Below, one piece after another: positions 1,673 to 51,279 of a DNA stretch of 59,621 nucleotides. The notes beneath the pieces were generated by a model. That model saw only the letters and a program-made list of their open reading frames with translations, searched no databases and had not been told where the DNA came from. The position numbers were made by a program, and so were the translations under genes. Location: the NCBI GenBank assembly GCA_964357525.1, contig CAYHLH010000001.1, positions 77,719-137,339 of the forward strand. The letters run 5' to 3'. The stretch comes from an uncultured Candidatus Saccharibacteria bacterium (GTDB taxonomy: Bacteria; Patescibacteriota; Minisyncoccia; UBA6257; GWB1-50-10). Positions within the stretch are counted from its first letter, which is position 1, and the number at the start of each line of letters is the position of its first letter.

Positions 1673-3850
1673 TTATGACTTTTTTTCTGTAAGAAGAGTG
1701 GTGTATTTCTTCCAAAGATCCATTACTTTCGGGGGGAGACGGTGCTTTTCGCGGACTTTCATGGCTGCAATTTCAATGAGTGTTTCTGCCTCCCCAGGAG
1801 TTACTTTATCAAAATTAACCGCCTCTCTTACCTCCTTGAAGGGCTCGCTGTACGTCCCACTTTCAAAGAGACCGTTTCTCTTCCAATTTAATTCCCTCAA
1901 TTTATTTCCATCTGCTTCAATATTTTTCTTGATGCGTTCCACCTCACTTTCAAGGTCGGTTTTCTTCTTTTCCCATTCCGCCTTTTTAAACAAACCCGGC
2001 TTAGTGCCTGAGTGGGTACTTACCGCATTCCTTGCAGTTTTTAAATCCGACTCAAGCGCCTTCTGGTGGTCTGCAACTTCATGCCATTTTTCACGCATGG
2101 TAGCGTCAATAATATCATTACCATCAAGAACCACTAGATGACCTTCGGGTATTTCCTTTAAAAACTTGTCGGCATTCTTGATGATCACATTGCATGAATG
2201 CTCATATTTCTCCGCGCTTTCAATTGTAAACCTTACATCAGAAGAGTCCTGCACTTCCTTGCCGTAAGGCGTCTTCAACTTTTCATCCTTGCATTCTTCC
2301 ACGAGTTCTGCTTTCAAAAACTGCTTTTCAGCCTCTTGAAGGGTGATTTTTGCAACATCTGCTTCTATCTCGCGAAGGTATTTTTTCTTTTGCATCACAT
2401 ACTCTTTGGCTTCGTCATAATTTTTGATATTTCCACGCTCTTGTGAAAAAACTCTTTCTTCGTTTGAAGTAACCTCGTACGAAGCTTTGCGTCGAAAATC
2501 TTCCGTTCTAAATGAATACTCCGGCTTATTTTTAAAAACTTCCTTATATCCTTCCCTTTTCGAAAGACCTCCAAACTCGCGATCGGCATCTTCCTGGGTT
2601 TTTACACTTGCCACCTTTTCTTCCAAGAAACGTAAAAAATCTTCCTGTTTTTTGCACGCTTCAAGAATCTTTCCGTAATCAACAGAAGGCGGAAACTCAT
2701 TTAAAGCCTTCTGGACCGCCTTCAGGGACTGCTCTTCGTCCCCAAGATGTCCCACGAAACCATTCGCATATTTTGACCCCCAATTGAACACGAGCGTGAT
2801 TCCTTTTTCACTTTGAACTTTATCCATACGCTCACCAATCTCATCTCTCTTTTGAATTACTTCCTGAAGAAAACGTACGGCCTCACTCCCCTTTTCCGGT
2901 GACCATCCTTCAATGTCTTTTTCATACTGATCGAGATGGACGACGTTTTTGCTTAAATTGTCGAATGCCACATCAATCTTTTCTTCTATGGCCCGTGATT
3001 GAGCTTCTTTTGCAATTTCCCAACCGTATTCCTTTGCAATCGATACCACGACATTAGGAACGAACTGGTCTTTCGCATAATTGATCTTATTAATGCATTT
3101 CTTCTTGCTAATGTCGTAAAACACACCTTCATCCTTATCATACCCACTGTACCCCTCATTAAAACTTACTCCAAAACCCTCCAACTGAATGCTTCTTGGA
3201 TTTTCAAAAGAGTGGGTATTAACCTGAATTTTTCTCTTTCCTGGAATTTTCTCGCTGATTTCTTTAGCAAAAAAATCAAGTATCTCTTCTTTGCCCTCTG
3301 GCGTTTCGAGTTTCTTATGAAAAAGCTCTTTTTGGAATTCTGGAATTCTTTTGCCTACTTTTTCGGCGAGGGCGGCATAATCCAATTTGCCTTCAGCAGT
3401 CTCAATACCGAACTTTTTCAGGCGGTTCTCTAATTGCCGATCCGTAAGCTCGAGTTCTTTAACGTCTTTTTCAGCGGATTTATACGCCTTCACCTCTTCT
3501 TCCTCGTCGAATTCAGGGCGCGCGATAAGTTCCTCTTTAGAAGTAATCCCCACTTTTTCCTTGAGCGCTTCCTTGTTTTCGTAAAAAACGTTCTCGATCT
3601 CGGTTTCCTGCTTTTTCAACTTATCGGTTGTTTCAGAAGCATACTCCTCCATGCCGATGCCTTTCCCCTGCTCTTTATCCGATTTGAACGCCAAAGAGCC
3701 TCGCAAAACTTCAAGTGAGTGCATCTGTTCCTCCATATCCTTTATTTCCGCGCGAATCGGCGCAAGACGCTCTTCTTCCTTTTTCTGTTCTTCAGTCTTT
3801 TTCTGAATTTTATGCTCCGCGGAAAGTTTCCCCAGTTTTTCTTTTAACAT
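1673..3850 (-). CDS. large K/E-rich hypothetical protein (AT-rich island)
   Basis: 725-aa uninterrupted ORF in AT-rich DNA with coiled-coil-like composition. No motif I recognise. TATAAC lies 6 nt upstream of the ATG. Confidence 0.55.
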   Translation of the reverse strand: MLKEKLGKLSAEHKIQKKTEEQKKEEERLAPIRAEIKDMEEQMHSLEVLRGSLAFKSDKEQGKGIGMEEYASETTDKLKKQETEIENVFYENKEALKEKVGITSKEELIARPEFDEEEEVKAYKSAEKDVKELELTDRQLENRLKKFGIETAEGKLDYAALAEKVGKRIPEFQKELFHKKLETPEGKEEILDFFAKEISEKIPGKRKIQVNTHSFENPRSIQLEGFGVSFNEGYSGYDKDEGVFYDISKKKCINKINYAKDQFVPNVVVSIAKEYGWEIAKEAQSRAIEEKIDVAFDNLSKNVVHLDQYEKDIEGWSPEKGSEAVRFLQEVIQKRDEIGERMDKVQSEKGITLVFNWGSKYANGFVGHLGDEEQSLKAVQKALNEFPPSVDYGKILEACKKQEDFLRFLEEKVASVKTQEDADREFGGLSKREGYKEVFKNKPEYSFRTEDFRRKASYEVTSNEERVFSQERGNIKNYDEAKEYVMQKKKYLREIEADVAKITLQEAEKQFLKAELVEECKDEKLKTPYGKEVQDSSDVRFTIESAEKYEHSCNVIIKNADKFLKEIPEGHLVVLDGNDIIDATMREKWHEVADHQKALESDLKTARNAVSTHSGTKPGLFKKAEWEKKKTDLESEVERIKKNIEADGNKLRELNWKRNGLFESGTYSEPFKEVREAVNFDKVTPGEAETLIEIAAMKVREKHRLPPKVMDLWKKYTTLLTEKKS

Positions 3851-3898
3851 GATTTTGTTATATCACAATCAAAAAATAAAAGCAATACTTCAACATAT

Positions 3899-4657
3899 TT
3901 ATATCAATAATTCAATAGATATTGGACAATGATCCGAGCCGTACACGTCGTCATGGATCTTTGCCGACCTCAAATGCGGCACGAGGCGCTTGTCCACGAA
4001 GAAGTAGTCTATGCGCCAGCCGACGTTACGGTCCCGCGCGAAGCTCTTCATGTCCCACCACGAGTAGTGTTTCCCGCCCTTCTCGAAGACCCTGAAGGAA
4101 TCCACATATCCGGCTTTCACGAACTTGTCGAGCCAACGGCGCTCCTCGGGCAAAAATCCGGAGACGCCCTCGTTCTCTTTCGGCCTCGCGAGGTCAATTT
4201 CTTTATGCGCCGTGTTCACGTCCCCGCAGAACACGACAGGTTTTTTCTTTTTCTTCGCATATTTTAAAAATGCGTCATAGAATGCAAGTTTGTATTCAAG
4301 ACGGTCGGGCGATGCCTTTCCATTCGGGAAATAGACGTTCAGGAGGAAAAAATCATTAAATTCAGTTTCAATTATCCTTCCCTCGCCGTCAAGCGCGGGA
4401 ATCCCAAAATGGGTTTTCACAGCAACTGGAGAGACCCTGGTCCACGTAGCGACGCCGCTGTATCCACGCTTCTCGCCGTTGGAATAGGAGATACCGTATC
4501 CGGGTATGCTCCTTAGGTCCTCTGGAAACTGGTCTTCGTGAGCCTTCGTCTCCTGCACGCACACGACATCGGCCTTAGTTTTCAGGAACCACTCCAAAAA
4601 ACCCTTCTTGTGCACCGCCCGGATGCCGTTCACGTTCCAGGAAATCAATTTAATCAT
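3899..4657 (-). CDS. xth: exodeoxyribonuclease III
   Basis: 252 aa. N-terminal ISWNVNGIRA and C-terminal SDHCPI are typical of the ExoIII/APE1 family. Confidence 0.9.
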   Translation of the reverse strand: MIKLISWNVNGIRAVHKKGFLEWFLKTKADVVCVQETKAHEDQFPEDLRSIPGYGISYSNGEKRGYSGVATWTRVSPVAVKTHFGIPALDGEGRIIETEFNDFFLLNVYFPNGKASPDRLEYKLAFYDAFLKYAKKKKKPVVFCGDVNTAHKEIDLARPKENEGVSGFLPEERRWLDKFVKAGYVDSFRVFEKGGKHYSWWDMKSFARDRNVGWRIDYFFVDKRLVPHLRSAKIHDDVYGSDHCPISIELLI

Positions 4658-5650: not shown

Positions 5651-5730
5651 TCATCTAGCGTAGCGAGGAAATACAAAAAACCGCTTTTGTATTTACGAGC
5701 GAGCGAAGATGACAAGGGCGAAGCCCGCCA
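5651..5730 (+). repeat. F2 hairpin element, tandem copy 1
   Basis: Outer stem TCATCT/AGATGA, internal loops AGCGTAGCGAGG and ACGAGCGAGCG, inner stem AAATACAAAA/TTTTGTATTT, then GGGCGAAGCCC. Confidence 0.8.
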
Positions 5731-5811
5731 TCATCTAGCGTAGCGAGGAAACGGAAAGATTTTACATTTACGTTTACGAGCGAGCGAAGATGACAAGGGC
5801 GAAGCCCGCCA
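5731..5811 (+). repeat. F2 hairpin element, tandem copy 2
   Basis: Flanks identical to copy 1, with a different inner segment. Confidence 0.8.
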
Positions 5812-5823
5812 TTGTTTGTATGA

Positions 5824-5895
5824 GCACCCTTAGCTCAGTGGTAGAGCGTTCCGTTCACATCGGAAAGGCCGTAGGTCCGATCCCTACAGGGTGCA
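5824..5895 (+). tRNA. tRNA-Val (anticodon CAC)
   Basis: Cloverleaf: acceptor GCACCCT/AGGGTGC, D arm GCTC-AGTGGTA-GAGC, anticodon arm TTCCG-TTCACAT-CGGAA, T arm GTAGG-TCCGATC-CCTAC, discriminator A. No CCA is encoded. Confidence 0.85.
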
Positions 5896-13432: not shown

Positions 13433-13460
13433 ATTATAAATCAGCACTCAACAGTGTCAA
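13433..13460 (-). promoter_or_regulatory. hrcA operon promoter
   Basis: TTGACA-16 nt-TATAAT, then 9 nt to the ATG. The -35 lies inside the CIRCE spacer. Confidence 0.7.
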
Positions 13461-13467
13461 GTGCTGA
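13441..13467 (-). promoter_or_regulatory. CIRCE operator (HrcA binding site)
   Basis: TCAGCACTT-N9-GAGTGCTGA compared with the consensus TTAGCACTC-N9-GAGTGCTAA. Confidence 0.75.
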
Positions 13468-13500
13468 TTTTGTTTGAACGGGGCGAAATCACAAAATCAG

Positions 13501-13529
13501 CACCGAGCACATAATTTATGTGCTCGGTG
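13501..13529 (-). promoter_or_regulatory. second inverted repeat with CIRCE-like 9-nt spacing
   Basis: CACCGAGCAC-ATAAATTAT-GTGCTCGGTG, 34 nt upstream of the CIRCE. Confidence 0.4.
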
Positions 13530-13618
13530 AAAATAAAAGCAATCCACTACCCTTAAAACGAGGTGTGAGGAATAAATCCGCTTATACCGACGATTGTTCA
13601 CGTATGAATAAAAACAGA

Positions 13619-13642
13619 GGCACTCCATTCGAATGGAGCGCC
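13619..13642 (-). terminator. intrinsic terminator of the pseudopilin gene
   Basis: GGCGCTCCATTCGAATGGAGTGCC followed by TCTGTTTTTATT (minus sense). Confidence 0.7.
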
Positions 13643-13706
13643 TTCACTCACAAGCTTCCGCCAAAGGCGGATTAGCCTTCGGCTGAAATGAAACCAATCA
13701 GCTTTA

Positions 13707-14474
13707 TTACGGACAGCTTACCTGCGTAGCAGTGACCGCGCTAGAGGTCGTGTAAATCTTGTAGCAGTTTCCGTTGACCGCATCTTTAACGATAATGCCG
13801 GCGCCTGGAGACATGTTCGAAATGGTGGTCGAGGTAAATTTGACGCTCCCGCCGACCTCAAGCGTCCCGGAAAAATACGCGTTGTTCCACCTCAGGCCAG
13901 AGGCGCCAAGGTTCAGTGTGCCGTCCGCGGTCGGCTGGACGGCGGAATCGAACGTCGCCGCGGAGATCCTCGTCACGGCCGTCTGGAGCGTGCGGGAGAC
14001 CATGGAGAGCGGATTCGTGGCCGCGGAGCTCATCGCGAGGTCTATCTGCGTAACCGCAAAACCGCCGGGATTCTCGTACTTCGTGACGTAAAACGAGTCA
14101 ACCTTCACGTTCTCGTCGGTCAAAGGAGTGATGGATATCGCCCCGCCCGACTCCGAGGTCGCGCGCGTCTCGAGATACATCACGGTCCCGCTCGCGTAGA
14201 TAAGTGTCACGTCGGCCGAAGAGGAGGCCATCCTGAGGCGCAACGTCGTCGTCGCGACGCCCGCAGTGATGTCGATGAGGCTCGATTTCTGGGCGAGTCG
14301 CCGCACGGTGTCCCCCGCGAACGCGATCTGCTGCTCCACCTCGTGCGAGGAAGCCTGGCGGAGCTGGACGCGCGTGACGACCATGAGGATGGAGACCAGA
14401 AACACCGCTGAAACGGCGAATATCGCGATGTATATCATCACTTCGACGAGGGAAAATCCGTTTTTCCTTCCCAT
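13707..14474 (-). CDS. type IV pilin-like protein (pseudopilin)
   Basis: Prepilin N-terminal motif MGRKNG|FSLVEVMIYIAIFAV. Start at 14474; the longer ORF to 14609 has no support. Confidence 0.7.
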   Translation of the reverse strand: MGRKNGFSLVEVMIYIAIFAVSAVFLVSILMVVTRVQLRQASSHEVEQQIAFAGDTVRRLAQKSSLIDITAGVATTTLRLRMASSSADVTLIYASGTVMYLETRATSESGGAISITPLTDENVKVDSFYVTKYENPGGFAVTQIDLAMSSAATNPLSMVSRTLQTAVTRISAATFDSAVQPTADGTLNLGASGLRWNNAYFSGTLEVGGSVKFTSTTISNMSPGAGIIVKDAVNGNCYKIYTTSSAVTATQVSCP

Positions 14475-19251: not shown

Positions 19252-20682
19252 TCATTTTTCCTTCCTCATCAGCGGGAAAACGACCGTTTCCCTTATCGGC
19301 TTCCCCATCATCACCGAGAAAAGCCGCTCCGACATCCCGAAGCCGGCCGAGGGAGGCATGCCGTGCTCCAGTGCCTCCAAGAACGCTTCGTCCGTCATCT
19401 GCGCCTCCTTGTCGCCTTTCTTCCGGAGCTTCGCCTGTTCCTCGAAGCGCGAGCGCTGGTCCCGCGGGTCGTTCAGTTCCGAGAATCCCTTACCGAGCTC
19501 CGTTCCGCACGCCATGATCTGGAAGCGCTCGACCCGTCCGGCGTCGCGCTCCGTGCGCTTCGCGAGGGGCTCGACCGAAACGGGCGGATCGACGAGGAAG
19601 CACGGCTTGACGAGTTTCGGACGCACGGTTTTTTTGAAAATGAGGTCGATGAGGCGGCCTTCCCCCGCGAACGGCTCCGGAGAGAGCCCCAGGGATTTCG
19701 CTTTCGCCTCGAGTTCCTTTCTGCCGGCTTTCGAAAGATCCACGCCCGCTTCCTTTTTGAAGATCTCGTAGTAATCCACCTTTTCCCATTTCCCGCCCCA
19801 ATTTATTTCCTTGCCCTGATACGAGCTCTTCATGTTCCCGAAGAGGTTTTTTGCGATCGCTTGGTACAGCGCCTGCATCCTTTCCATCATCCACCCGTAG
19901 TCGAGGTACGCCGCGTAGCATTCCATCTGGGTGTAGTCCTGCAGGTGTTCCCGGTCTATCCCCTCGTTCCGGAAAATCCGCCCGATCTCGAACACGCGCT
20001 CGTAGCCGCCTATGAGAAGCTTCTTCAGTGGCAGTTCGAGCGAGATCCTCAGGTAAAAATCCTCGTCGAGGGCGTTCATATGCGTCGTGAAGGGCTCCGC
20101 TTCCGCGCCGCCCGGAACCGCCTCCAAGACCGGCGTCTCCACCTCCAAAAAGCCTTCCGCGAGCAGGAAATCGCGCGCCGTTTTCCAGAACGCCGCCTTC
20201 TTCCTGAAAAGCTCTTTCGTTTCCTCGTCGAGGAGAAGGTCCAGATAGCGACTGCGCAGGCGCGATTCCGTGTCCTCCAGGCCGAACCACTCCACGGGAA
20301 CGGGGCGGAGCGCTTTTGCGAGGAGCCTGAACCTCAACGCCATCATCCCCTTCTCGCCCCTCTTGTTCGTGAATCCTTCGCCCTCCACCTCTATGATGTC
20401 CCCCTGATCCAGGAATTCCCGCAACGCGAACCCGTCCGTCTTCTTCTCCTCCAGGACGACCTGTAGCTTCCCCGTCTCGTCCTTGAGATCGCAGAATACG
20501 ATCTTTCCCTGGTCCCTGAGCGATGCGATCCTCCCCGCTACGGTCTTCTCCTCTCCGTGGAATTTCTCGAGGTATTCGCGCGCGGACACGCGCTCGCCCT
20601 CGAGGCGCGCGGGGAACGCATACGCCTTTTTCTCGTAGGCGTCCAATTTTCTTTTCCGCTCGCGGAGAATATCCTCGCGCAT
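19252..20682 (-). CDS. lysS: lysyl-tRNA synthetase, class II
   Basis: 476 aa. OB anticodon domain plus class IIb core (FRNEGID, GGFGMSERL-like end). Confidence 0.95.
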   Translation of the reverse strand: MREDILRERKRKLDAYEKKAYAFPARLEGERVSAREYLEKFHGEEKTVAGRIASLRDQGKIVFCDLKDETGKLQVVLEEKKTDGFALREFLDQGDIIEVEGEGFTNKRGEKGMMALRFRLLAKALRPVPVEWFGLEDTESRLRSRYLDLLLDEETKELFRKKAAFWKTARDFLLAEGFLEVETPVLEAVPGGAEAEPFTTHMNALDEDFYLRISLELPLKKLLIGGYERVFEIGRIFRNEGIDREHLQDYTQMECYAAYLDYGWMMERMQALYQAIAKNLFGNMKSSYQGKEINWGGKWEKVDYYEIFKKEAGVDLSKAGRKELEAKAKSLGLSPEPFAGEGRLIDLIFKKTVRPKLVKPCFLVDPPVSVEPLAKRTERDAGRVERFQIMACGTELGKGFSELNDPRDQRSRFEEQAKLRKKGDKEAQMTDEAFLEALEHGMPPSAGFGMSERLFSVMMGKPIRETVVFPLMRKEK

Positions 20683-20685
20683 GCC

Positions 20686-21162
20686 TTACTCGATGGAAAC
20701 GACGTGGAGCTTCACCTCGCCTTTCGGCGTAGCGATGGTAGCCACGTCGCCCGCGCGCTTTCCGAGGAGCGCGTGCCCGATGGGTGACTCGTTGGAAATG
20801 AAGCCGCGGGAGGGATCCGCCTCGTTACTTCCGACAATGGTGTATTCCTCGGTCTTGCGGTCCTTTTTCACTTTCACTTTCGTCCCGACCTTCACCGTGG
20901 TCGTGCTCCCGGGCCTGTGGATGATCTCGCTCCTCCGGAGCGTCTCTTCCAAGGCCGCGATGCGCGCCTCGAGGCGCGCCTGTTCGTCGCGGGTTTCCTG
21001 ATAGTCGGAGTTCTCCGAGAGGTCGCCGAGGTCCTTCGCCGCTTTCAGGCGCTCGGCGATGGCGTGCCGGCCCTCGGTCTTCAAGGTCTCGAGTTCGCGC
21101 CCGATTTCCTCGTACTTTTCCCTCGAAAGATATGCTTTATCCCCAATTCCCATCCCGTTCAT
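20686..21162 (-). CDS. greA: transcription elongation factor GreA
   Basis: 158 aa. GDLSENSDY motif. Confidence 0.9.
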   Translation of the reverse strand: MNGMGIGDKAYLSREKYEEIGRELETLKTEGRHAIAERLKAAKDLGDLSENSDYQETRDEQARLEARIAALEETLRRSEIIHRPGSTTTVKVGTKVKVKKDRKTEEYTIVGSNEADPSRGFISNESPIGHALLGKRAGDVATIATPKGEVKLHVVSIE

Positions 21163-21222
21163 AATAGGAAATCTCCGTCCCGCCGTGGCGGGACGGGATT
21201 TCCCTGCCTGCCGGCAGGCAGG

Positions 21223-21328
21223 CGTACCATTGCGACCTTATGTTGATAGAAAATCATTGATGGTGATTTATGCTAGGTTTCAAGGTTTTATCTGAATGCC
21301 CCGAGCAACGTAATCATGAATCGGGACC
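21223..21328 (-). repeat. F3 intergenic element, copy 1 (PBP2 stop to greA)
   Basis: 106 nt that align with 23746-23851: GTCCCGWTTMATGAWYACGTTGCTCGGGGCRTTCA ... ATGATTTTCWATCAA ... GTCGCAAYG(G)TACG. Confidence 0.75.
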
Positions 21329-21336
21329 CATGATGT

Positions 21337-23699: not shown

Positions 23700-23745
23700 C
23701 CCGTTAATGAAAGGAAACGACTGTTTGCGGAGCAAACAGCGTTTC

Positions 23746-23851
23746 CGTACGTTGCGACACTTTTTGATTGAAAATCACTGAATGACGGCCGATATTATTT
23801 TTCATGGTTTTTGTTTTGAACGCCCCGAGCAACGTGTTCATTAAACGGGAC
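23746..23851 (-). repeat. F3 intergenic element, copy 2 (mreC stop to mreD)
   Basis: See copy 1. It begins 5 nt after the mreC stop. Confidence 0.75.
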
Positions 23852-23856
23852 AAGTA

Positions 23857-28188: not shown

Positions 28189-29265
28189 TTAAAAAATCCT
28201 CCGCACGTCCCCGATTGTCACGAGAACCATGAGTACGAGAAGCAGGAAAAGCCCCGTGAGATTCACGGCAATCTGGAGCTTTCGCGACACCGGACTCCCC
28301 TTCACGCGCTCGATGAGCGCCATCACGATGCGCCCGCCGTCCAGGGCCGGAAACGGGAGGAGATTGAGAACCGCGAGGTTCACGGAGATGAGCGCCAAGA
28401 GATCGAGGAAGTACACGAAGCCGAGCGCCGACGTTTCCTTCGCGACGATGACGATGCCGACGGGACCCGCGATGTTCTCCGTCGCGGTGCCGGGCGAGGT
28501 GAAGAACTTCCACGCCATGTCAAAGAACCCTGCGACCACGAGCTTGCTCACTCCCCAGGTCTTCGCGGCGCCGACGCCGATGCTGTCGAAAAATCCCGAC
28601 GGCGCCGCTCCCACCTCACTGATATAGACCCCCAGGGAACCCTGCCCTTCCGCCGGATTTTCCCTCGCGAGGACGGAGGTTTCCCGCGTCTCATTCCCCC
28701 GCCGGAGCGTGATCGCCACTTCCTTCCCCCTCGAGGACCCGGCCCCCGCAATGAAGGCCCCCGCGTCCACGGGGTCCTTGAGGACGGTCTCGCCGAACCT
28801 CGCCTCGAGGACGATGTCGCCGACCTCGAGGCCCGCTATCTCGGCCGGAGAACCCTCCTGCACCCCGCTCACAACAAGGTGCTCAGGCACGCCCACGAAC
28901 GCGACGCCGCAGAACACGAGGAAACCGAAGAGGAAATTCATGAATACTCCCGCCGCGAGCACGGCGATTTTCTTGCCCACGGGCTGGTTCACAAAGCTGC
29001 TTCCGGGATTCTTTTCCTCCTCGCGGTGCTCCTCATCCGTTTCCTTTTCCTCGCCGTCCTCCCCGAGGATATGCACGAATCCGCCGAACGGCAGGGCGTT
29101 CACGCTGTACACCGTGCCTTTCCTCCTCTTTCCGAAAAGGCGTGGCGGAAATCCGATGCCGAACTCGAGGACCCTAAGCCCGAACGCCTTTGCAACAGAA
29201 AAATGCCCCAGTTCGTGGATGAAGATGAGGAACGAAAGCGCGAGGATGACGAGTACGGTGGTCAT
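28189..29265 (-). CDS. rseP: site-2 protease RseP (M50 zinc metalloprotease with PDZ)
   Basis: HELGHF and NLLPFPALDGG motifs. Confidence 0.88.
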   Translation of the reverse strand: MTTVLVILALSFLIFIHELGHFSVAKAFGLRVLEFGIGFPPRLFGKRRKGTVYSVNALPFGGFVHILGEDGEEKETDEEHREEEKNPGSSFVNQPVGKKIAVLAAGVFMNFLFGFLVFCGVAFVGVPEHLVVSGVQEGSPAEIAGLEVGDIVLEARFGETVLKDPVDAGAFIAGAGSSRGKEVAITLRRGNETRETSVLARENPAEGQGSLGVYISEVGAAPSGFFDSIGVGAAKTWGVSKLVVAGFFDMAWKFFTSPGTATENIAGPVGIVIVAKETSALGFVYFLDLLALISVNLAVLNLLPFPALDGGRIVMALIERVKGSPVSRKLQIAVNLTGLFLLLVLMVLVTIGDVRRIF

Positions 29266-29464
29266 GCCGATTTTATTCGTGAACGCAGTGAACGACTATA
29301 AAATCGAGCACCCCGCACATATTTTGCGGAAATACCATTATTTTTAGAAATGAATTTTCCGAACATTAAAATCTTTTTTCTCATATAAAATTGGGTTAAT
29401 AAAATATGTGCGGGGTAGAGTTTGATATTCAAAAATCTTTCGCTTCTCAGCTCGGATTTTTGAA
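29266..29464 (-). repeat. E1 intercistronic element, copy a (frr | rseP)
   Basis: Hairpin B 29268-29276/29298-29306; IR arms 29310-29325/29401-29416 (perfect 16 bp); hairpin A ~29421-29468. Ends in GGCATG. Confidence 0.8.
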
Positions 29465-30007
29465 TCAAGACTTGATCTCTTTGATCTTCGCCTCGAGCGC
29501 CTTCTCGATTCCATCGTTCGTCTTGTCCACGGCCCTCTGGACACGTTCCTTTTCCGAAAATTTGTCGTCTTCCGTGAGCGCAACGTCGCCCTGCGTCTTC
29601 CGGTTCGCCTCGTCTCTCGCGTGGCGGAGCCGGATGCGGTAGTCTTCCGCGGTCTTCTTCACATGCTTGATGAACTCCGCTCTCCGTTCCGCCGAAAGCT
29701 CGGGAAGGTGGATGCGGACCACATTCCCCTGGACCTGCGGGGAAAGCTTCAAGGTCGAGGTCTCTACTGCCTTTGCGACCGCGGAAACCGCGCCCTTGTC
29801 CCACACCTGGATGTTGATCTCCCTTGGGAGCGCGATGCTCACGGAACTCATGTGCTTCAGGGGCGTCTGCTGCCCGTAATAGTCCACCACAATGCCTTCC
29901 ACGAGTGCCGCCGACGGCCGGTTGGTCCTGACGCCCGAAAGCTCGCGCTTGAGGTCCGCAAGGATGCGGTCTGCCTCCGATTCAAAAGAAGATTCCATGG
30001 CGTTCAT
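29465..30007 (-). CDS. frr: ribosome recycling factor
   Basis: 180 aa. LSGVRTNRPSAALVEGIVVDYYG pattern. Confidence 0.93.
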   Translation of the reverse strand: MNAMESSFESEADRILADLKRELSGVRTNRPSAALVEGIVVDYYGQQTPLKHMSSVSIALPREINIQVWDKGAVSAVAKAVETSTLKLSPQVQGNVVRIHLPELSAERRAEFIKHVKKTAEDYRIRLRHARDEANRKTQGDVALTEDDKFSEKERVQRAVDKTNDGIEKALEAKIKEIKS

Positions 30008-37426: not shown

Positions 37427-37651
37427 GCCAACGATGTCTAAATTTTCGAGCTCATCCGTGGCGAAGAAAATTTAGCCACAATCATGAGCACCCGCCCAAG
37501 TTTTTGGGTATTTGCCGACATTTTTACTGTTGAATTTTTTATCTTGTTATCCATTGTATTTATCATATTACCTGAAAATTTGGGCGGGTAAGGTTTGATG
37601 ATGGAAAAATGTTCGCTCATTATCATTAGCTCCATTTTTCCAATCAAGCCC
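37427..37651 (-). repeat. E1 intercistronic element, copy b (rpoA | rplQ)
   Basis: Hairpin B 37438-37447/37466-37475; IR arms 37490-37505/37575-37589; hairpin A 37595-37647, closed by TAAGG (rpoA stop)/CCTTA. Ends in TTGGCATG. Confidence 0.8.
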
Positions 37652-38413
37652 TTACTTTTTCGTTTTCTTCGCTTTCTTCTCGGTCTTCGCTTCTTCCTTG
37701 CCTTTCATCTCGATGTGCGTCACCTCGAAGTCCCCGATGCGGTCGAAATGGTCGTGTAGGATGCTGATGGCCTTGTGAAGCGCTTCCGAGGGGCTGATGC
37801 TGCCGTCGGTCTTTATATCGAGCGAGAGGCGGTTATAGTCCGTGCGCTGCCCCACGCGCATGTTCTCTACGGACACCGCGACGTTCTCAACCGGCGAGAA
37901 TATCGCGTCGAGGACGATGGTGCCGACGAGGAGCCTCTCGAGCCGGCGCGATTCGGCGGGAACGTACCCGAGGCCCTTTTCCACCACGAGCTCCATGTCG
38001 AGCTCCGCGGCCTTCTTCGTGAGCGTGCAGAGATGGAGGTCCTTGTTCACGACCTGCACGAACGGGGTCGATTGTATGGCGGCGGCGGCGACCTCTCCCT
38101 CGCCTTTTGCCTTGAGGGTCAGAGTCTGCGGTTCGTCGGCGAGGAAATGGAAGCGAACCTTCTTGAGGTTCAGCGTGAACTGTATGATGTCCTCCATCAT
38201 TCCGGGGAGCGCCGAAAATTCGTGGTTCACCCCCTTGATCTTTATCTGGGTGACGGCGGCGCCGGGGATCGACGAAAGGAGCACGCGCCGGATTGCGTGG
38301 CCGACCGTCGTCCCGTACCCCGTGTGGAGCCCCTCGATGTGAAAAACGCCGAGATTGTCCTTCTCGGAAATTTTCTTTATTTCGACCGAATCGCTCAAAC
38401 GCACATACTGCAT
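37652..38413 (-). CDS. rpoA: DNA-directed RNA polymerase alpha subunit, N-terminal domain only
   Basis: 253 aa. The alpha-NTD pattern runs through ISILHDHFDRI, then a short K/E tail and a stop. No CTD is present. Confidence 0.9.
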   Translation of the reverse strand: MQYVRLSDSVEIKKISEKDNLGVFHIEGLHTGYGTTVGHAIRRVLLSSIPGAAVTQIKIKGVNHEFSALPGMMEDIIQFTLNLKKVRFHFLADEPQTLTLKAKGEGEVAAAAIQSTPFVQVVNKDLHLCTLTKKAAELDMELVVEKGLGYVPAESRRLERLLVGTIVLDAIFSPVENVAVSVENMRVGQRTDYNRLSLDIKTDGSISPSEALHKAISILHDHFDRIGDFEVTHIEMKGKEEAKTEKKAKKTKK

Positions 38414-39047: not shown

Positions 39048-39251
39048 GCCAATGTTATTTGCGAACAACGTGAGCAATGATAACATTGCGCACCCGCCCA
39101 AGTTTTTGGGATTCTGCCGACTTCTTTATCATTGTTATTTTCATGATGGTTTCAATTGTATTTACCCATATAATTGCAAAAATTTGGGCGGGTAAGGTTT
39201 TGTCGCCCCGTGAGATGGCGACGGCCGCCTATCTCACTGGGGACAAAGCCC
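39048..39251 (-). repeat. E1 intercistronic element, copy c (rpsK | rpsD)
   Basis: Hairpin B 39050-39058/39080-39088; IR arms 39092-39107/39178-39193; hairpin A 39198-39247 plus TAAGG/CCTTA. Ends in TTGGCATG. Confidence 0.8.
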
Positions 39252-39704
39252 TTATACTCTCCTCACTTTCGGGGGCCTCGGCCCGTTGTGGGGGATCGGC
39301 GTCACATCCTTCAGGGAAAGGATGTTGAATTTTCCGCCAGCGAAGGTCCTTATAGTGGAATCCCTCCCCTTGCCGACGCCGCACACGACGATGTCCACGG
39401 AAAACGGGCCCGTTTTCTCTATCTTCGCGGCAATGGCCTCCGCGACCTTGGAGGCCGCGAAGGGGGTGGCTTTCTTGGGGCCCGAAAAGCCGATCGAGCC
39501 CGCCGACATCCAGGTCAAGACGTTTCCCTTCTCGTCAGTGACGGTGATGATGGTGTTGTTGTAGCTGGCGTTCACATAGATGCGCCCGCGCTCCACTTTG
39601 TGCTTGGAGCTCGGGGTTGTCTTCTTAAGGGCCGCTTCCTCCACCTTTGCGGATTCCTTCAGGGCCTCCTCTTTCGTCTGTTCGGCTACTTTCTTCTTTC
39701 CCAT
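39252..39704 (-). CDS. rpsK: 30S ribosomal protein S11 (N-terminally extended)
   Basis: IYVNASYNNTIITVTDEKGNVL...PHNGPRPPKVRRV. Confidence 0.92.
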   Translation of the reverse strand: MGKKKVAEQTKEEALKESAKVEEAALKKTTPSSKHKVERGRIYVNASYNNTIITVTDEKGNVLTWMSAGSIGFSGPKKATPFAASKVAEAIAAKIEKTGPFSVDIVVCGVGKGRDSTIRTFAGGKFNILSLKDVTPIPHNGPRPPKVRRV

Positions 39705-40089: not shown

Positions 40090-40274
40090 GTGCCAATCTT
40101 ATTTGCGAGCAGTGCGAGCAATCATAAGATTGAGCACCCGCCCAAGTTTTCGGGCTCGCGTCGACTTCCTCACTGCTGATTGTTTCATTATAGTATTCAT
40201 TGTTTCTGTTAGTGTTGTTTGAAAATTTGGGCGGGTAAGGTTTTGTACCTCCAGCTACGCCGGAGACAAAGCCC
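40090..40274 (-). repeat. E1 intercistronic element, copy d (rpmJ | rpsM)
   Basis: Hairpin B 40094-40102/40124-40132; IR arms 40136-40150/40222-40236; hairpin A 40236-40277, which includes the rpmJ stop. Ends in TTGGCACATG. Confidence 0.8.
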
Positions 40275-40391
40275 TTACCCCTGCCGCTGCTTGTGCTTCG
40301 GGTTCTTCTTGCAGATGACGTAGACCACGCCGCCTCTGCGGACTATCTTGCAATGTTGGCATACTTTTTTCACCGATGCTTTTACTTTCAT
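40275..40391 (-). CDS. rpmJ: 50S ribosomal protein L36 (not in the ORF track)
   Basis: Hand translation: [38 protein letters not shown]. Confidence 0.9.
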
Positions 40392-41705: not shown

Positions 41706-42103
41706 GATTCGATTGGTACCTCATAAGCCGGATTCTGTTTATACGATAATCCATCTGGGCCCTCGATTACTCTCAGGCTCAAGCGGCACTTCCCTCGATT
41801 TCTCTCGGGACACGGCCTTGCACCCAGTAAGGATTTAGCCGTTTCACCCCTTCGGTTTCCCGAAGAGCTCACCCGGTGTGGGTGCCCTATCCTTTCGAAA
41901 TCGGGCGTCTCTGTTCGCACCTCTCGGGTTTCCCCGGACGGCTGTTAACCGCTACTTGTTTACCCAGCCCCAATTTTACTTACAAACTTTTTACTTGTTT
42001 TCAGGCTTGCGAGTAAAATTGGAGCTGGGGAGTGTCCGGACTTTCCTCTAAGCAAATAATAAATTATATGCCCAGCTATCGTGTGATGTACCGCTCTGAA
42101 TCA
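41705..42103 (-). ncRNA. rnpB: RNase P RNA, bacterial type A
   Basis: CR-I GAGGAAAGTCCGGAC (rc of 42034-42048), GGGGTGAAACGGC, CR-V ACAGAATCCGGCTTATG (rc of 41722-41738). P1 pairing TGATTC..GGTAC / GTACC..GAATCA sets the ends to within +/-5 nt. Confidence 0.9.
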
Positions 42104-42626: not shown

Positions 42627-43064
42627 TTAAAAAAGGCGTCTGTCCAGTTCCGCGTTCACCAATGCATCCGCGCGGGAATTCTTCTCGCGTGGGATGTGTG
42701 TGAACGAGACGCCCTTAAACTCGGTCATCAGGTTCCTGACGTCTACATACAGCATCTTGAGGTCCGCTTCCTTCACCTTGTACTCTCCGTTCATCTGGCT
42801 TACCAATAGCTCGCTGTCCGAGCGGATCTCCACTTCCGTTTTCTTCGCCTTCTCTCCCCCGAGAAGCGCCTTCGTTTTCTTCAGCGCAAAGACGACCGCC
42901 TTATACTCCGCGACGTTGTTCGTCGTCTTCCCGATATACTCGGAATATTCCTTGCCTGCCCCGGACCTCACGTCGGGGTCCACCACGACGACGCCTACCG
43001 CGGCGTGCCCTGGATTTCCCCTAGCACCACCATCGGTGTAAATAACTATTTTATTCTTTTCCAT
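42627..43064 (-). CDS. rnhA: ribonuclease HI
   Basis: 145 aa. IYTDGGARGNPG ... NNVAEY ... ADALVN. Confidence 0.85.
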   Translation of the reverse strand: MEKNKIVIYTDGGARGNPGHAAVGVVVVDPDVRSGAGKEYSEYIGKTTNNVAEYKAVVFALKKTKALLGGEKAKKTEVEIRSDSELLVSQMNGEYKVKEADLKMLYVDVRNLMTEFKGVSFTHIPREKNSRADALVNAELDRRLF

Positions 43065-43876
43065 GGGAATTTCTTTCCGCTCTTCAACCTGAAAGAGGCC
43101 GCTCTTTTATGCCCTCCCCCGCCGTATCTCGCGGCGATCTTCGAAACGTCCACCGTTCCGTTCGAACGCAGGGATATGCTCGTCCCGCCCTTTCTCTCCT
43201 TCCACGTAACGGCGATCGGAGACATTTTCCTGAGAAGCTCGTGAGCCACGAGAGAATGGAGTACCGGAGAATATGCCACAAGAGTTTTGTGGCCTGCAAA
43301 CACGGCCGGAAACGCGGTCTTCACGATTTGCCCTATAAGCCTCCTCTCATATGCCTTTATGACCGTACCCTCGCGGACAATTTTTCTTCTCGTCTTCGGG
43401 TTTTCCACGCGCCTGGCAAAATCGCTCCACGCGCGGAAATCGTGTTCAATAAGGTCGAGGCACGCGAAGATTTCCATCGTGTGCGGCATTTTGAATTTCC
43501 ACAGATCGAATTCCTCTATGTATCTCAGGAATAGCGGAATCTTCTTCTTCGGATAAAAATACCGCCATGCCAATACGGAACCGGAGTGGTCGTTATCAAA
43601 CACGTTTTCCGGAAACGCCTGCGTATCCGCCTTCCGGCTCGCGTGGTGGTCTATGACGACCACTTTTTCGTTTTTCGCGCGGAGTTCTTTCTGGACAGCG
43701 AGCGGAAAACTCACGTCGATCGCGTAAATCTCCCTCCCTTTCGGAAACTTCTTCGGGAGCCTTTCCGGTTCTACTGGAACGTACTCTGCGCGGGCGCCGA
43801 ATTTCTTCCATGCCGTCCACGCGGCGCCGAATCCGTCCGAACAATCCTTGTGATAGATAACCAATATTTTCTTCAT
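43046..43876 (-). CDS. DHH-family phosphoesterase (NrnA-like)
   Basis: DCSDGFGAA, VVIDHHASR (DHH) and GGGHKRAA (DHHA1) motifs. Confidence 0.8.
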   Translation of the reverse strand: MKKILVIYHKDCSDGFGAAWTAWKKFGARAEYVPVEPERLPKKFPKGREIYAIDVSFPLAVQKELRAKNEKVVVIDHHASRKADTQAFPENVFDNDHSGSVLAWRYFYPKKKIPLFLRYIEEFDLWKFKMPHTMEIFACLDLIEHDFRAWSDFARRVENPKTRRKIVREGTVIKAYERRLIGQIVKTAFPAVFAGHKTLVAYSPVLHSLVAHELLRKMSPIAVTWKERKGGTSISLRSNGTVDVSKIAARYGGGGHKRAASFRLKSGKKFPWKRIK

Positions 43877-45027
43877 TTCAGCGCCTCCACTCCGGGCAAT
43901 TTCTTCCCCGCGAGAAACTCTATCATCGCTCCACCGCCGGTGGATATGAAGATGTTCTTCCTCTTCCTAGCGAGCGAATCAGGGGTTTCGCCTACGAGCG
44001 CGAGCGAGGCGACGGTCTCTCCGCCTCCCGCGACGGCGAACGCCGACTTGTCCTTCGTCCGCTCGATGATGGCGGACCACATCTTTTTCGTGCCTCCCGC
44101 GAACCGCTTCTCGTGGTAATAGCCCGGCGGGCCGGCGAAGAGAACGGTTTTTGCCCCGAGGACGATGCGCGCGTACTCGTCGGCCGTCACGGGGCCTATG
44201 TCGAGGATCTTTCCCTTGTGCCGCAGGTCGTCGAGCGGCAGGTATACCTTCTCGGACGAAGCGAAGCGCTTCGCCTCCTTAAAAAACTCCTTTTCGTGCG
44301 TCGAACTGCCTATATTCTCCCCCTGCGCTGCGAAGAACGTGTTCGCGACGGCTCCTGAAAGGAGGAATAAGTCGGCTTTCCTCCGGAATATCCTCATAAG
44401 CTCCATTTTCTCCTTCACCTTGGCGCCGCCGGCGAGGATGACGAACGGGCGCCTCGGATTTCTCGTAGCCTTCCCCAGCGACGAAAGTTCCCGCTCCAGA
44501 AGGAGCCCCGCGTACGACGGGAGGAGTTTCGCGACGGCACACACGGACGCGTTCCTTCTGTGGCTTACCGCAAACGCGTCGTTCACATAGATATCCGCGA
44601 GCGACGCGAGCGCGCGGGCGAGATTCGCGTCGTTTTTCTCCTCACCGGGGAAAAAGCGTATGTTCTCGAGGAGAAAGAGTTTTTTCGGCGAGGTCGCGAT
44701 CTCCCACCTCAGGCGGGAGAAATGCGCGTCGAACGATCTCTTTCCGGCTTTGGGATGCGGGAAGAACGCGACGTTCTTATTGAGTTCGCACGCGAACGCC
44801 TCGGCGAACGGCCTAAGCGAAAGGGCGCCGTCCGCCTTTTTCGGTCTTCCCCTATGACTTACGATGACGACCTTCGCGCCGCGCGCGAGGAGGAACTTGA
44901 GCGTCGGAAGCGAGGCGCGGAAGCGGTATATCTCCCGCGGATTTCTCTCGATGACGTTCAGGTCCAGCCGGAGCAGGCATACCTTGCCGTTGATGCTTTT
45001 CCTGCCGAGCGTGCGGAGCGTTTTCAC
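43873..45027 (-). CDS. pgk: phosphoglycerate kinase
   Basis: 384 aa. RLDLNV, VIVSHRGRP, ISTGGGA. GTG start with TATAAT 6 nt upstream. Confidence 0.92.
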   Translation of the reverse strand: MKTLRTLGRKSINGKVCLLRLDLNVIERNPREIYRFRASLPTLKFLLARGAKVVIVSHRGRPKKADGALSLRPFAEAFACELNKNVAFFPHPKAGKRSFDAHFSRLRWEIATSPKKLFLLENIRFFPGEEKNDANLARALASLADIYVNDAFAVSHRRNASVCAVAKLLPSYAGLLLERELSSLGKATRNPRRPFVILAGGAKVKEKMELMRIFRRKADLFLLSGAVANTFFAAQGENIGSSTHEKEFFKEAKRFASSEKVYLPLDDLRHKGKILDIGPVTADEYARIVLGAKTVLFAGPPGYYHEKRFAGGTKKMWSAIIERTKDKSAFAVAGGGETVASLALVGETPDSLARKRKNIFISTGGGAMIEFLAGKKLPGVEALK

Positions 45028-47540: not shown

Positions 47541-47720
47541 GCCAATCTTATTTGCGAGGTACACGAGCAATCATAAGATTGAGCACCCGCCCAAGTTTTT
47601 GGACCTTTGTTGCGGATTGTATCATTGCGTATGTCTGCATATGTCTAAAAATTTGGGCGGGTAAGGTTCGGTAATCAAAAATCTTTCGCCTCCGGCTCTG
47701 ATTTTTGAACCGAGCCCTTA
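47541..47720 (-). repeat. E1 intercistronic element, copy e (gtrA-like | GT2)
   Basis: Hairpin B 47543-47551/47573-47581; IR arms 47585-47600/47647-47662 (46-nt loop); hairpin A 47662-47720, which lies inside the last 15 codons of the upstream ORF. Ends in TTGGCATG. Confidence 0.8.
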
Positions 47721-50814: not shown

Positions 50815-51279
50815 TCACTTCAAGATCCCCCGCCGCTTGAGCTCGGGGATGAGTTGTTCCGTCAAGGCATCGTGGAACGCGTCCTCAATGAAGGGGTCGC
50901 ACCGCTTCGCGGCGCGTATGGCATCCTCGAGGCCTTTGTCGAACGCTTGCGCGACGAGTTCCTCCACGGCCTGCCGCTCCGCGGCATGCTCGCCGTCTCC
51001 GCCTTCGGCGGAGAGGTATCCGGGAAGCGTCGAAACGGCGCTTCCTTTCTGCGCTGGCACCGGTTGAGGCGCGGGGGCTGTCGGCGGCGCGGGGGACGCG
51101 GTCTCCCGTTGCTCGGGAAGCCGTTCGGCCATGGAACGAAGGGTTTCCTTCACGATCGTCTCATGCGGGGCGTCTTTCATCTCCGGTCTCGAAGACAGCG
51201 CTTCCACTTGCTTGCCTACCTCGGCAAACACCCGTTCCGCCGACGGTCCAGAGGCGTCGAAGTGCACCACTTTCACCAT
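50815..51279 (-). CDS. hypothetical protein
   Basis: 154-aa ORF with a P/A-rich middle. TATAAT lies 8 nt upstream of the ATG. Confidence 0.5.
   Translation of the reverse strand: MVKVVHFDASGPSAERVFAEVGKQVEALSSRPEMKDAPHETIVKETLRSMAERLPEQRETASPAPPTAPAPQPVPAQKGSAVSTLPGYLSAEGGDGEHAAERQAVEELVAQAFDKGLEDAIRAAKRCDPFIEDAFHDALTEQLIPELKRRGILK

Follow-up and report, generated by a model that had tools for sequence, protein, structure and literature searches.

The repeat families that come closest to the element described here, which we call E1, include the RAYT-associated REP, BIME and REPIN sequences of proteobacteria. Like E1, they are extragenic and repeated, and they consist of two inverted units which, together with the spacer between them, form a long hairpin. 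They also resemble E1 in occurring in mosaic combinations and tandem clusters, in showing paired arm changes that keep the arms complementary, and in often lying inside operons, where they are co-transcribed. E1 differs from them in that its unit is much longer (about 60-75 nt, with a hairpin of its own), in that its arm motifs are found in several divergent lineages of the CPR (Patescibacteria) rather than in one species, and in that its ends are fitted to stop and start codons.

The BOX elements of Streptococcus pneumoniae and the ERIC/IRU elements of enterobacteria are modular, intergenic, transcribed and non-coding, with partly complementary ends and stable folds, and both BOX and ERIC occur in either orientation. 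E1 shares with them a modular A-B-C build and a variable number of modules; we know of no description of BOX or ERIC as reaching exactly from a stop codon to a start codon. The Correia elements, which are MITEs of Neisseria, and the Rickettsia palindromic elements are small, palindromic and co-transcribed, and occur in compact genomes. Correia hairpins are substrates of RNase III, and the Rickettsia elements are tolerated inside genes, RNA genes included. Unlike these two families, E1 shows no TA target duplication or IHF site, and it avoids coding sequence, adjoining it instead.

Structured elements placed exactly between cistrons, where they could mark off the individual mRNAs, are known from the RNase III hairpins of phage T7 early mRNA and from the tRNA punctuation of mitochondrial transcripts. 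The comparison with E1 concerns only how such an element might work; unlike these examples, E1 is repeated, mobile-looking and absent from sister genomes. Finally, integron attC sites resemble E1 in being imperfect-palindrome hairpins 3' of an open reading frame, with structure conserved over sequence and a variable apex. E1, by contrast, has core sites that are inconsistent in presence and orientation, and it flanks housekeeping operons. CPR genomes, which are small, are considered to contain little mobile DNA, and a literature search returned no description of E1, nor of REP- or MITE-type repeat families in CPR/Patescibacteria.

Five copies of E1 in the window

The window, by which we mean the whole 59.6-kb stretch of DNA analysed here, belongs to a CPR (Patescibacteria) genome from a Hainich groundwater 0.1-µm metagenome. 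In its frr-rseP gap, whose G+C content is 35-39% compared with about 60% in genes, 199 nt (29266-29464, minus strand) are filled by one copy of E1, copy a. RNAfold folds this copy into three contiguous hairpins in the order A, C, B, at -58.8 kcal/mol (z = -4.7), and none of 200 shuffled sequences was equally stable. The earlier note on this DNA had described helix C as a perfect 16-bp stem, which RNAfold recovers, and all the sequences quoted there were found where it had placed them. Helix C is a long-range stem enclosing an AT-rich spacer of 75 nt; helix B reads, in order, GC-U-CGATTTTAT, TCGT, an 11-nt loop TCACTGCGTTC, ACGA and ATAAAATCG-GC. We dismissed a small open reading frame in the spacer, which has an ATGA overlap with rseP, because it is not conserved in copies b-e.

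Table 1. Positions in the window of copy a with its flanking genes, and of the other four copies of E1
Feature	Position	Strand	Description
frr	29465-30007	-	Pfam RRF domain
frr stop TGA	29465..29467	-	inside 5' arm of helix A; same position in sister genomes
Copy a, helix A	29422..29468	-	TTGATTCAAAAATC (29468-29455) / GATTTTTGAATATCAA (29437-29422); apical GAGCTGAGAAGCGAA motif
Copy a, helix C	29310..29416	-	perfect 16 bp, ACCCCGCACATATTTT (29416-29401) / AAAATATGTGCGGGGT (29325-29310)
Copy a, helix B, type 1	29266..29309	-	ends GGC, directly before rseP ATG
rseP start ATG	29263..29265	-	start of Peptidase_M50 + PDZ protein
rseP	28189-29265	-	Pfam Peptidase_M50 + PDZ
Copy b, rpoA-rplQ	37427..37654	-	hairpin B type 2 = inverted A-type hairpin
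Copy c, rpsK-rpsD	39048..39254	-	junction 5-20 nt in S4 relatives
Copy d, rpmJ-rpsM	40090..40277	-	
Copy e, GtrA-like gene to family-2 glycosyltransferase gene	47541..47720	-	element TAA out of frame

Searches for repeats and motifs yielded four further copies in the window (b-e), and all five are intergenic and lie between co-directional genes. The arm motif of E1 occurs 13 times in the window, against 2.9 occurrences expected. Copies b-e share the helix C arms ACCCGCCCAAATTTT / AAAACTTGGGCGGGT, which contain one A·C mismatch on the gene-sense strand, a detail absent from the earlier note. Copy e folds into the same three hairpins as copy a, and its helix A is of the same hairpin type, with TCGGT/ACCGA in place of TTGAT/ATCAA. 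Here the upstream GtrA-like open reading frame runs 14 codons into helix A (47675-47720, minus strand), its Pfam domain ending at residue 204 of 218; the out-of-frame TAA reflects either a genuine frameshift or, since the assembly has low coverage and there is a run of T here, an error of one base. As had been proposed from the sequence of copy a, the element extends beyond ribosomal-protein genes: in the window it lies at the frr-rseP and GtrA-glycosyltransferase junctions, and on other CPR contigs it lies 5' of pilin-like and probable TrpRS genes.

Complementarity of the arms

Both arms of copy a had been said to have changed together, and the stem differences between copy a and copies b-e are indeed all two-sided. 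In helix C they comprise an indel pair, a change from C-G to A-T, another from A-T to T-A, and the repair of the A·C mismatch found in copies b-e; in helix B, two pairs are changed in the 9-bp stem and two more in the 4-bp extension. When the five copies with a helix B of type 1 are compared (a, c, d, e and that of contig L050), 100% of its 15 pairs are paired, with four two-sided changes and no one-sided change, and pairing collapses to 31-41% in slid controls.

For helix C the comparison covers 20 copies, in which 90% of cells are paired and 9 of the 15 pairs are altered on both sides. None of 500 shuffles reached the observed covariation score, and slid controls drop to 58-60% or lower. Two rows of this alignment are one column out of register; the result stands regardless. 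There are at least five variants of the helix C arm, all of them complementary: ACCCGCCCAAATTTT, ACCCCGCACATATTTT (variant 2, the arm of copy a), ACCCCGTTAGATA, CCCCGCCCCAATCT and CGCCCTGAAA. One-sided substitutions, on whose frequency the earlier note had made its case depend, are not common in this enlarged set of copies, and the two-sided pattern holds. One position of helix C keeps a mismatch, which is A·C in seven copies and G·U in four. An inversion of the helix C core was considered as the cause and set aside; independent transitions from G-C explain the position equally well, the spacers of L026_1 and L030_2 show no similarity in either orientation, and for those of L004 and L011 the inverted alignment is weakly better (z = 3.6).

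Two-sided changes of this kind can arise without any selection, by quasipalindrome template-switch correction or by the replacement of modules. The complementarity of E1 might then be a mutational by-product only, generated by template switching with no structure selected. Almost all changes being two-sided, the absence of a strand-specific wobble bias and the extension of the palindrome into the loops (see below) are what such a process would produce. It leaves unexplained, however, the polarity of the element and its exact abutment on stop and start codons, as well as a stop-codon partner that tracks a protein-coding stop; the conserved mismatch in helix C, which persists, also speaks against it, and we consider the by-product explanation improbable. 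As a practical caution, clean compensatory changes in a hairpin do not prove a functional RNA.

Fit to stop and start codons

All 21 of the tabulated copies of E1 lie in gene sense, an orientation that in these copies is inseparable from orientation relative to replication. The stop codon is followed after 0-1 nt by GGGC; at the other end, GGC is followed after 0-2 nt by ATG, and most copies of the element end in GGC-ATG. Helix A is closed by [stop codon]+(A)GG, to which CC(T)T+[TTA or TCA] is paired. Directly after it comes helix C, and then helix B with its GC...GC, the final base of which lies before the ATG. The second position of the stop codon forms an A-T pair with its partner in 14 copies (TAA/TTA) and a G-C pair in three (TGA/TCA, in L005, L050 and L078, of which L050 has one more compensated pair), with no mismatches. 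Covariation with the stop codon, taken together with the strict polarity, shows that a further constraint, linked to gene expression, is superimposed on complementarity. Random insertion into spacers of 5-35 nt would hardly yield abutment on codons as exact as this.

The translational context of the window bears on how this fit may be read. No Shine-Dalgarno motif was detected upstream of start codons anywhere in the window. Several of its genes have starts of the form TATAAT-N6-ATG, with TATAAT 6-8 nt before the start codon (43873-45027 and 50815-51279, and also upstream of 42627-43064), which as sequence features suggest that leaderless mRNAs are frequent. Adjacent genes of the window are otherwise spaced by -4 to +16 nt, and the internal operon genes of this genome probably depend on termination-reinitiation.

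These features allow E1 to be viewed as a dedicated intercistronic RNA device, either a processing signal that punctuates the message or a ribosome shunt to the next AUG. As a processing signal, it would be cut by RNase III or another nuclease, so that a protective hairpin would close the upstream mRNA at its stop codon, and the mRNA downstream would start at or beside its AUG, without a leader. Such a device would span exactly from stop to start, as about 20 copies in several genomes do, always in gene sense; it would accord with a paired stop codon whose partner covaries, with three helices that abut without a linker, and with a genome that lacks Shine-Dalgarno sequences and seems to make leaderless mRNAs. 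The enrichment of copies in long ribosomal-protein operons, the lack of a promoter or terminator within E1, and its retention at orthologous junctions in L026 and L030 fit as well. Sister genomes, however, run the same operons without E1, which is therefore dispensable, and core-only relatives of the element precede tRNA genes, where translation is irrelevant; these two observations weaken the idea of processing or shunting. Moreover, the sense strand shows no preference for G·U, hairpins A and B are mirror images with their loops included, which an RNA function would not need, and copy e tolerates an element TAA that is out of frame. On balance a dedicated RNA device is a possibility to be kept in mind, although a doubtful one. 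We regard as rather unlikely its boldest form, in which E1 would be a 'stop-start bridge', handing ribosomes over some 200 nt or being excised to leave a leaderless mRNA, and would spread horizontally as a cassette among CPR bacteria without Shine-Dalgarno sequences.

Alternatively, E1 might combine a terminator and a promoter in a cassette by which every gene downstream of a copy would become a separate transcription unit. It is positioned upstream of genes, the AT-rich spacers of copies b-e contain TACAAT/TATAAT-like hexamers, and type 1 copies have an nAnnAT hexamer 4 nt before the ATG. Yet that hexamer lies too near the ATG and is lost in type 2 copies, the spacers are unrelated between genomes, and a consensus scan detected no consistent -35/-10 pair. 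Hairpin-plus-U-tract terminators and TATAAT boxes occur in other long gaps of the window, whereas the five E1 gaps contain neither; no U-tract follows helix A, C or B, although the real terminators of the genome have one, and the sole terminator hit at E1, inside copy d, is due to chance. The consensus scans gave no consistent promoter or terminator, and we hold such a cassette to be very improbable.

Distribution across CPR genomes

A scan of GTDB genomes for the palindrome pattern detected the full architecture of E1 in other Patescibacteria MAGs (L004, L005, L011, L026, L030 and L050), and reduced or core-only copies in L016, L025, L032 and L036. Running nhmmer and a covariance model over 80 loci that encode relatives of S4 added L069, L075 and L078, extra copies in L026 and L030, and a remnant in L057 that consists of the B module only. 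Setting apart L068, which is the window's own genome, a full copy is present in 4 of the 79 other S4-relative loci. The MAGs that have both the same arm motif and the full architecture come from different sites; their deposited labels are Sungiibacteriota, Saccharibacteria and unclassified Patescibacteria. The contigs that carry the copies are all fragmentary and of metagenomic origin.

The presence of E1 is polymorphic, in that three junctions filled in the window are empty in relatives. The rpsK-rpsD gap measures 5-20 nt in relatives with 54-66% S4 identity, and the frr-rseP gap measures 34, 67 and 32 nt in relatives whose RseP is 78, 74 and 64% identical; among sister genomes, the rpoA-rplQ gap measures 23 nt. 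With nhmmer we found no E1 at the sister frr-rseP and rpoA-rplQ loci, and about 60 kb of sister contigs are without it; the frr stop codon has the same position whether or not E1 is present. E1 does occur in more distantly related genomes of the same aquifer (L069, L075 and L078).

On a Falkowbacteria contig (L032, 5229-6310), core palindromes (ACCCGCC[C/T]AAATTTAGC...) lie 25-40 nt upstream of tRNA-Pro, tRNA-Phe and tRNA-Ile. Each core is preceded by a copy of the first 15-18 nt of that same tRNA, and two of these copies contain a 22-nt GC hairpin insert. The arrangement looks like the footprint of a tRNA-targeting insertion. Lineage-limited presence, shared modules and tRNA-linked cores are the behaviour of a spreading, recombining repeat.

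The rpsK-rpsD gap of another S4 relative (L063, about 3790-4016) contains two tandem palindromes, with the arms CCCGTTAGAAAT / ATTTCTAACGGG, that the E1 covariance model missed. Their arms are related to arm variant 3 of E1, and the last arm adjoins the ATG of the S4 gene.

Palindromic build and exchange of modules

E1 measures about 190-230 nt and has long inverted halves. Its hairpin B is of two types, of which type 2 (in copy b and in L004, L011, L026, L030, L075, L078 and L057) is an inverted A-type hairpin, loop included (GAGC..GCGAA versus TTCGC..GCTC). In the type 2 copies, the left half aligns with the reverse complement of the right half through hairpin and loop. Thus the whole element amounts to a unit, a spacer and an inverted unit.

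The modules are found in different combinations. For example, L075 is a mosaic of an L030-like A module, arm variant 3 and an L011-like B module; the B modules of L011 and L075 are 97% identical over 68 nt, whereas the coding DNA barely aligns. At rpsH-rplF, L026 has a tandem arrangement A-C-A-C-B, and L026 and L030 have E1 at the same junctions with different arm variants. The modules are the best, and often the sole, nucleotide matches between genomes that bear E1. Spacers are related within one genome or among a few genomes and are otherwise unrelated, so that E1 contains no conserved open reading frame.

A helix selected in RNA is expected to have many G·U pairs and few A·C mismatches. Each 5' arm was aligned to its 3' arm in reverse complement, and the transition mismatches in these alignments were sorted by type: the sense strand shows 22 G·U and 41 A·C. 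The conserved GC/A internal loop of helix A accounts for about 18 of the 41 A·C cases, which leaves the two classes roughly equal. The absence of a G·U excess on the sense strand, together with a mirror symmetry that continues into the loops, points to complementarity that is maintained in DNA.

The earlier note had argued from the concerted changes that what is selected is pairing, or arm identity as in recombination sites, rather than a fixed protein-binding sequence. Part of this argument stands, since across 20 copies and at least five variants complementarity is kept and the arm sequence is not fixed. RNA pairing as the target is not established by it: the parity of G·U and A·C, the inverted halves, the absence from sister genomes and the shared modules favour instead the other alternative in the note, arm identity, with E1 as a DNA palindrome or a mobile repeat.

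Comparison with known elements

Rfam, with its ribosomal-protein leaders, contains no match to E1 at gathering thresholds, and sub-threshold hits by E-value were miRNA-type noise. A phage origin was rejected when blastn against phages gave no match, as was a viral origin, for which a 14-mer scan of IMG/VR gave chance hits only and nhmmer detected no element in 120 loci. Pfam searches of the 70 open reading frames of the window, which represents 59.6 kb of a contig at least 137 kb long, revealed no transposase or integrase and no match to Y1_Tnp, the domain of the IS200-like RAYT transposase whose gene REPs usually flank; no IS was found in the sequences examined. Insertion into an 'empty site' TAAGGCATG, which occurs at one junction (20680-20688), was discarded, as neither the window nor 0.93 Mb of CPR loci is enriched in this motif. 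The sequence 'TGCTC...' after helix C presumably resembles boxA antitermination sites; this reading, too, was rejected, the sequence being paired in helix B and variable.

Matches of 10-mers to the arms in the cyanobacteria Symploca and Chamaesiphon have nothing else in common with E1, and we take them to belong to unrelated repeat families. Cyanobacterial MAGs among L006-L055 (contigs of Symploca, Caldora and Chamaesiphon) contain many repeats of 75-100 nt bounded by these same 10-mers (AAA-ACCCGCCCAA...TTGGGCGGGT-TTT), which are probably an unrelated MITE or terminator-like family.

With MITEs, E1 shares terminal inverted repeats, small size, lack of coding capacity and polymorphic presence at orthologous sites. 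It is flanked, however, by a stop codon and an ATG with no direct repeat, and a duplicated tRNA 5' end accompanies only the core-only copies of Falkowbacteria. The absence of a target duplication is compatible with a PATE derived from IS200/IS605. PATEs, however, have subterminal hairpins but no inverted ends and insert 3' of a fixed tetra- or pentanucleotide, whereas the ends of E1 are inverted copies and its left flank is TAA or TGA rather than one fixed motif.

We also considered whether E1 marks gene cassettes as a site-specific recombination site, recognised as a hairpin in the manner of attC. An imperfect palindrome of about 100 nt lies right after the stop codon, its arms conserved in structure and variable in sequence, with a variable top. 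Arm variant 1 fits the integron core-site consensus at 6 of 7 positions, and variant 3 (GTTAGAT / ATCTAAC) and L025 (GCCCAAC / GTTGGGC) match GTTRRRY / RYYYAAC. But variants 2 and 4 have no core sites, the matching 7-mers are oppositely oriented in variants 1 and 3, no integrase was found in the window, and the genes on either side, far from being cassettes, are essential and syntenic housekeeping genes whose operon order is conserved. A recombination site of this kind is hardly credible. The attC sites and the T7 RNase III sites share no more than single traits with E1. Since E1 lacks a defining feature of each exact known family, we file E1 under mosaic palindromic intergenic repeats, among which its stop-to-start fit and its occurrence in CPR are distinctive.

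Other features of the window and of sister contigs

An RNase P RNA of bacterial class A lies at 41709-42094 (minus strand); a default Rfam scan misses it because its score, 77.8 bits, is below the gathering score of 100. In place of 13 nt in the model, it contains an insert of 77 nt, which is a hairpin CCCAGCTCCAATTTTAC...GTAAAATTGGGGCTGGG with arms similar to the core arms of E1; this insert parallels the Rickettsia palindromic elements found inside RNA genes.

A second family of intergenic repeats fills two junctions inside operons at 21163-21336 and 23736-23856 (minus strand), namely PBP2-greA and the one after mreC. Its members share the sequence ...ACGTTGCTCGGGGC[A/G]TTCA...AAACC...TGATTTTC.ATCAA...GTCGCAA, and in the sister contigs L256 and L260 the corresponding junctions have a length of only 2-15 nt. 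A perfect direct repeat of 40 nt (5692-5731 and 5773-5812, plus strand) lies just 5' of a tRNA gene (5824-5895). Within a 326-nt gap (13448-13773), the 33 nt at 13656-13688 share 91% identity with intergenic sequence in a further Patescibacteria MAG from Hainich (L004, 483-515), and may be another shared small element.

The product of rpoA (37652-38413, minus strand) has 253 aa and matches RNA_pol_L and RNA_pol_A_bac only, that is, the N-terminal and insert domains; no alpha C-terminal domain was detected in it. In the sister contig L258 (6344-7387), a reverse transcriptase gene (RVT_1, 347 aa) and two unknown open reading frames are inserted upstream of holB, in the place occupied by an mreB-like gene in the window, L256 and L260.

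Discussion

E1 has entered short intra-operon gaps in particular lineages, including that of the window; its modules have been exchanged between copies and between genomes, and its arms have remained complementary. We favour, with some but not strong confidence, the explanation that E1 is an undescribed family of mosaic, non-coding palindromic repeats of Patescibacteria whose stop-to-start fit allows it to be tolerated in operons. On this explanation, its plan would be a unit, made of a hairpin with a GAGC..GCGAA apex and a G+C-rich 'ACCC(C)G...' arm, then a variable AT-rich spacer, then the inverted unit. Complementarity would be kept at the level of DNA, where the hairpin or inverted-repeat form may serve as the substrate of a spreading machinery, and the two-sided changes would stem from quasipalindrome template switching or from module replacement.

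The polarity of E1 would follow from where it lives. In operons that are transcribed, lack Shine-Dalgarno sequences and have very short gaps, only copies of the right polarity would survive. In the survivors, helix A would close on the upstream stop codon and helix B would end at the downstream ATG; in the mRNA, some 200 nt would collapse into three abutting hairpins, holding stop and start close, and termination-reinitiation of the downstream gene would still work across the folded element.

Several observations count against a mobile repeat. No transposase, RAYT or integrase gene is among the 70 open reading frames searched with Pfam, and there is no visible target-site duplication. An insertion should leave remnants of the old spacer, yet about 20 copies have 0-2 nt on each side, and such exact ends fit a dedicated function better than mere tolerance. 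That L026 and L030 keep E1 at two orthologous junctions, and that conservation is higher in the A module than in the genes around it, could equally be the result of purifying selection.

E1 shows that compact operons, even those of ribosomal proteins, are open to repeated invasion, and that the invaders which persist are of a very particular kind: they fold completely, are polar, close on the stop codon and end at the start codon. It bears on the movement of DNA between CPR lineages that share an aquifer, and it offers a testable handle on intra-operon translation in bacteria without Shine-Dalgarno sequences.
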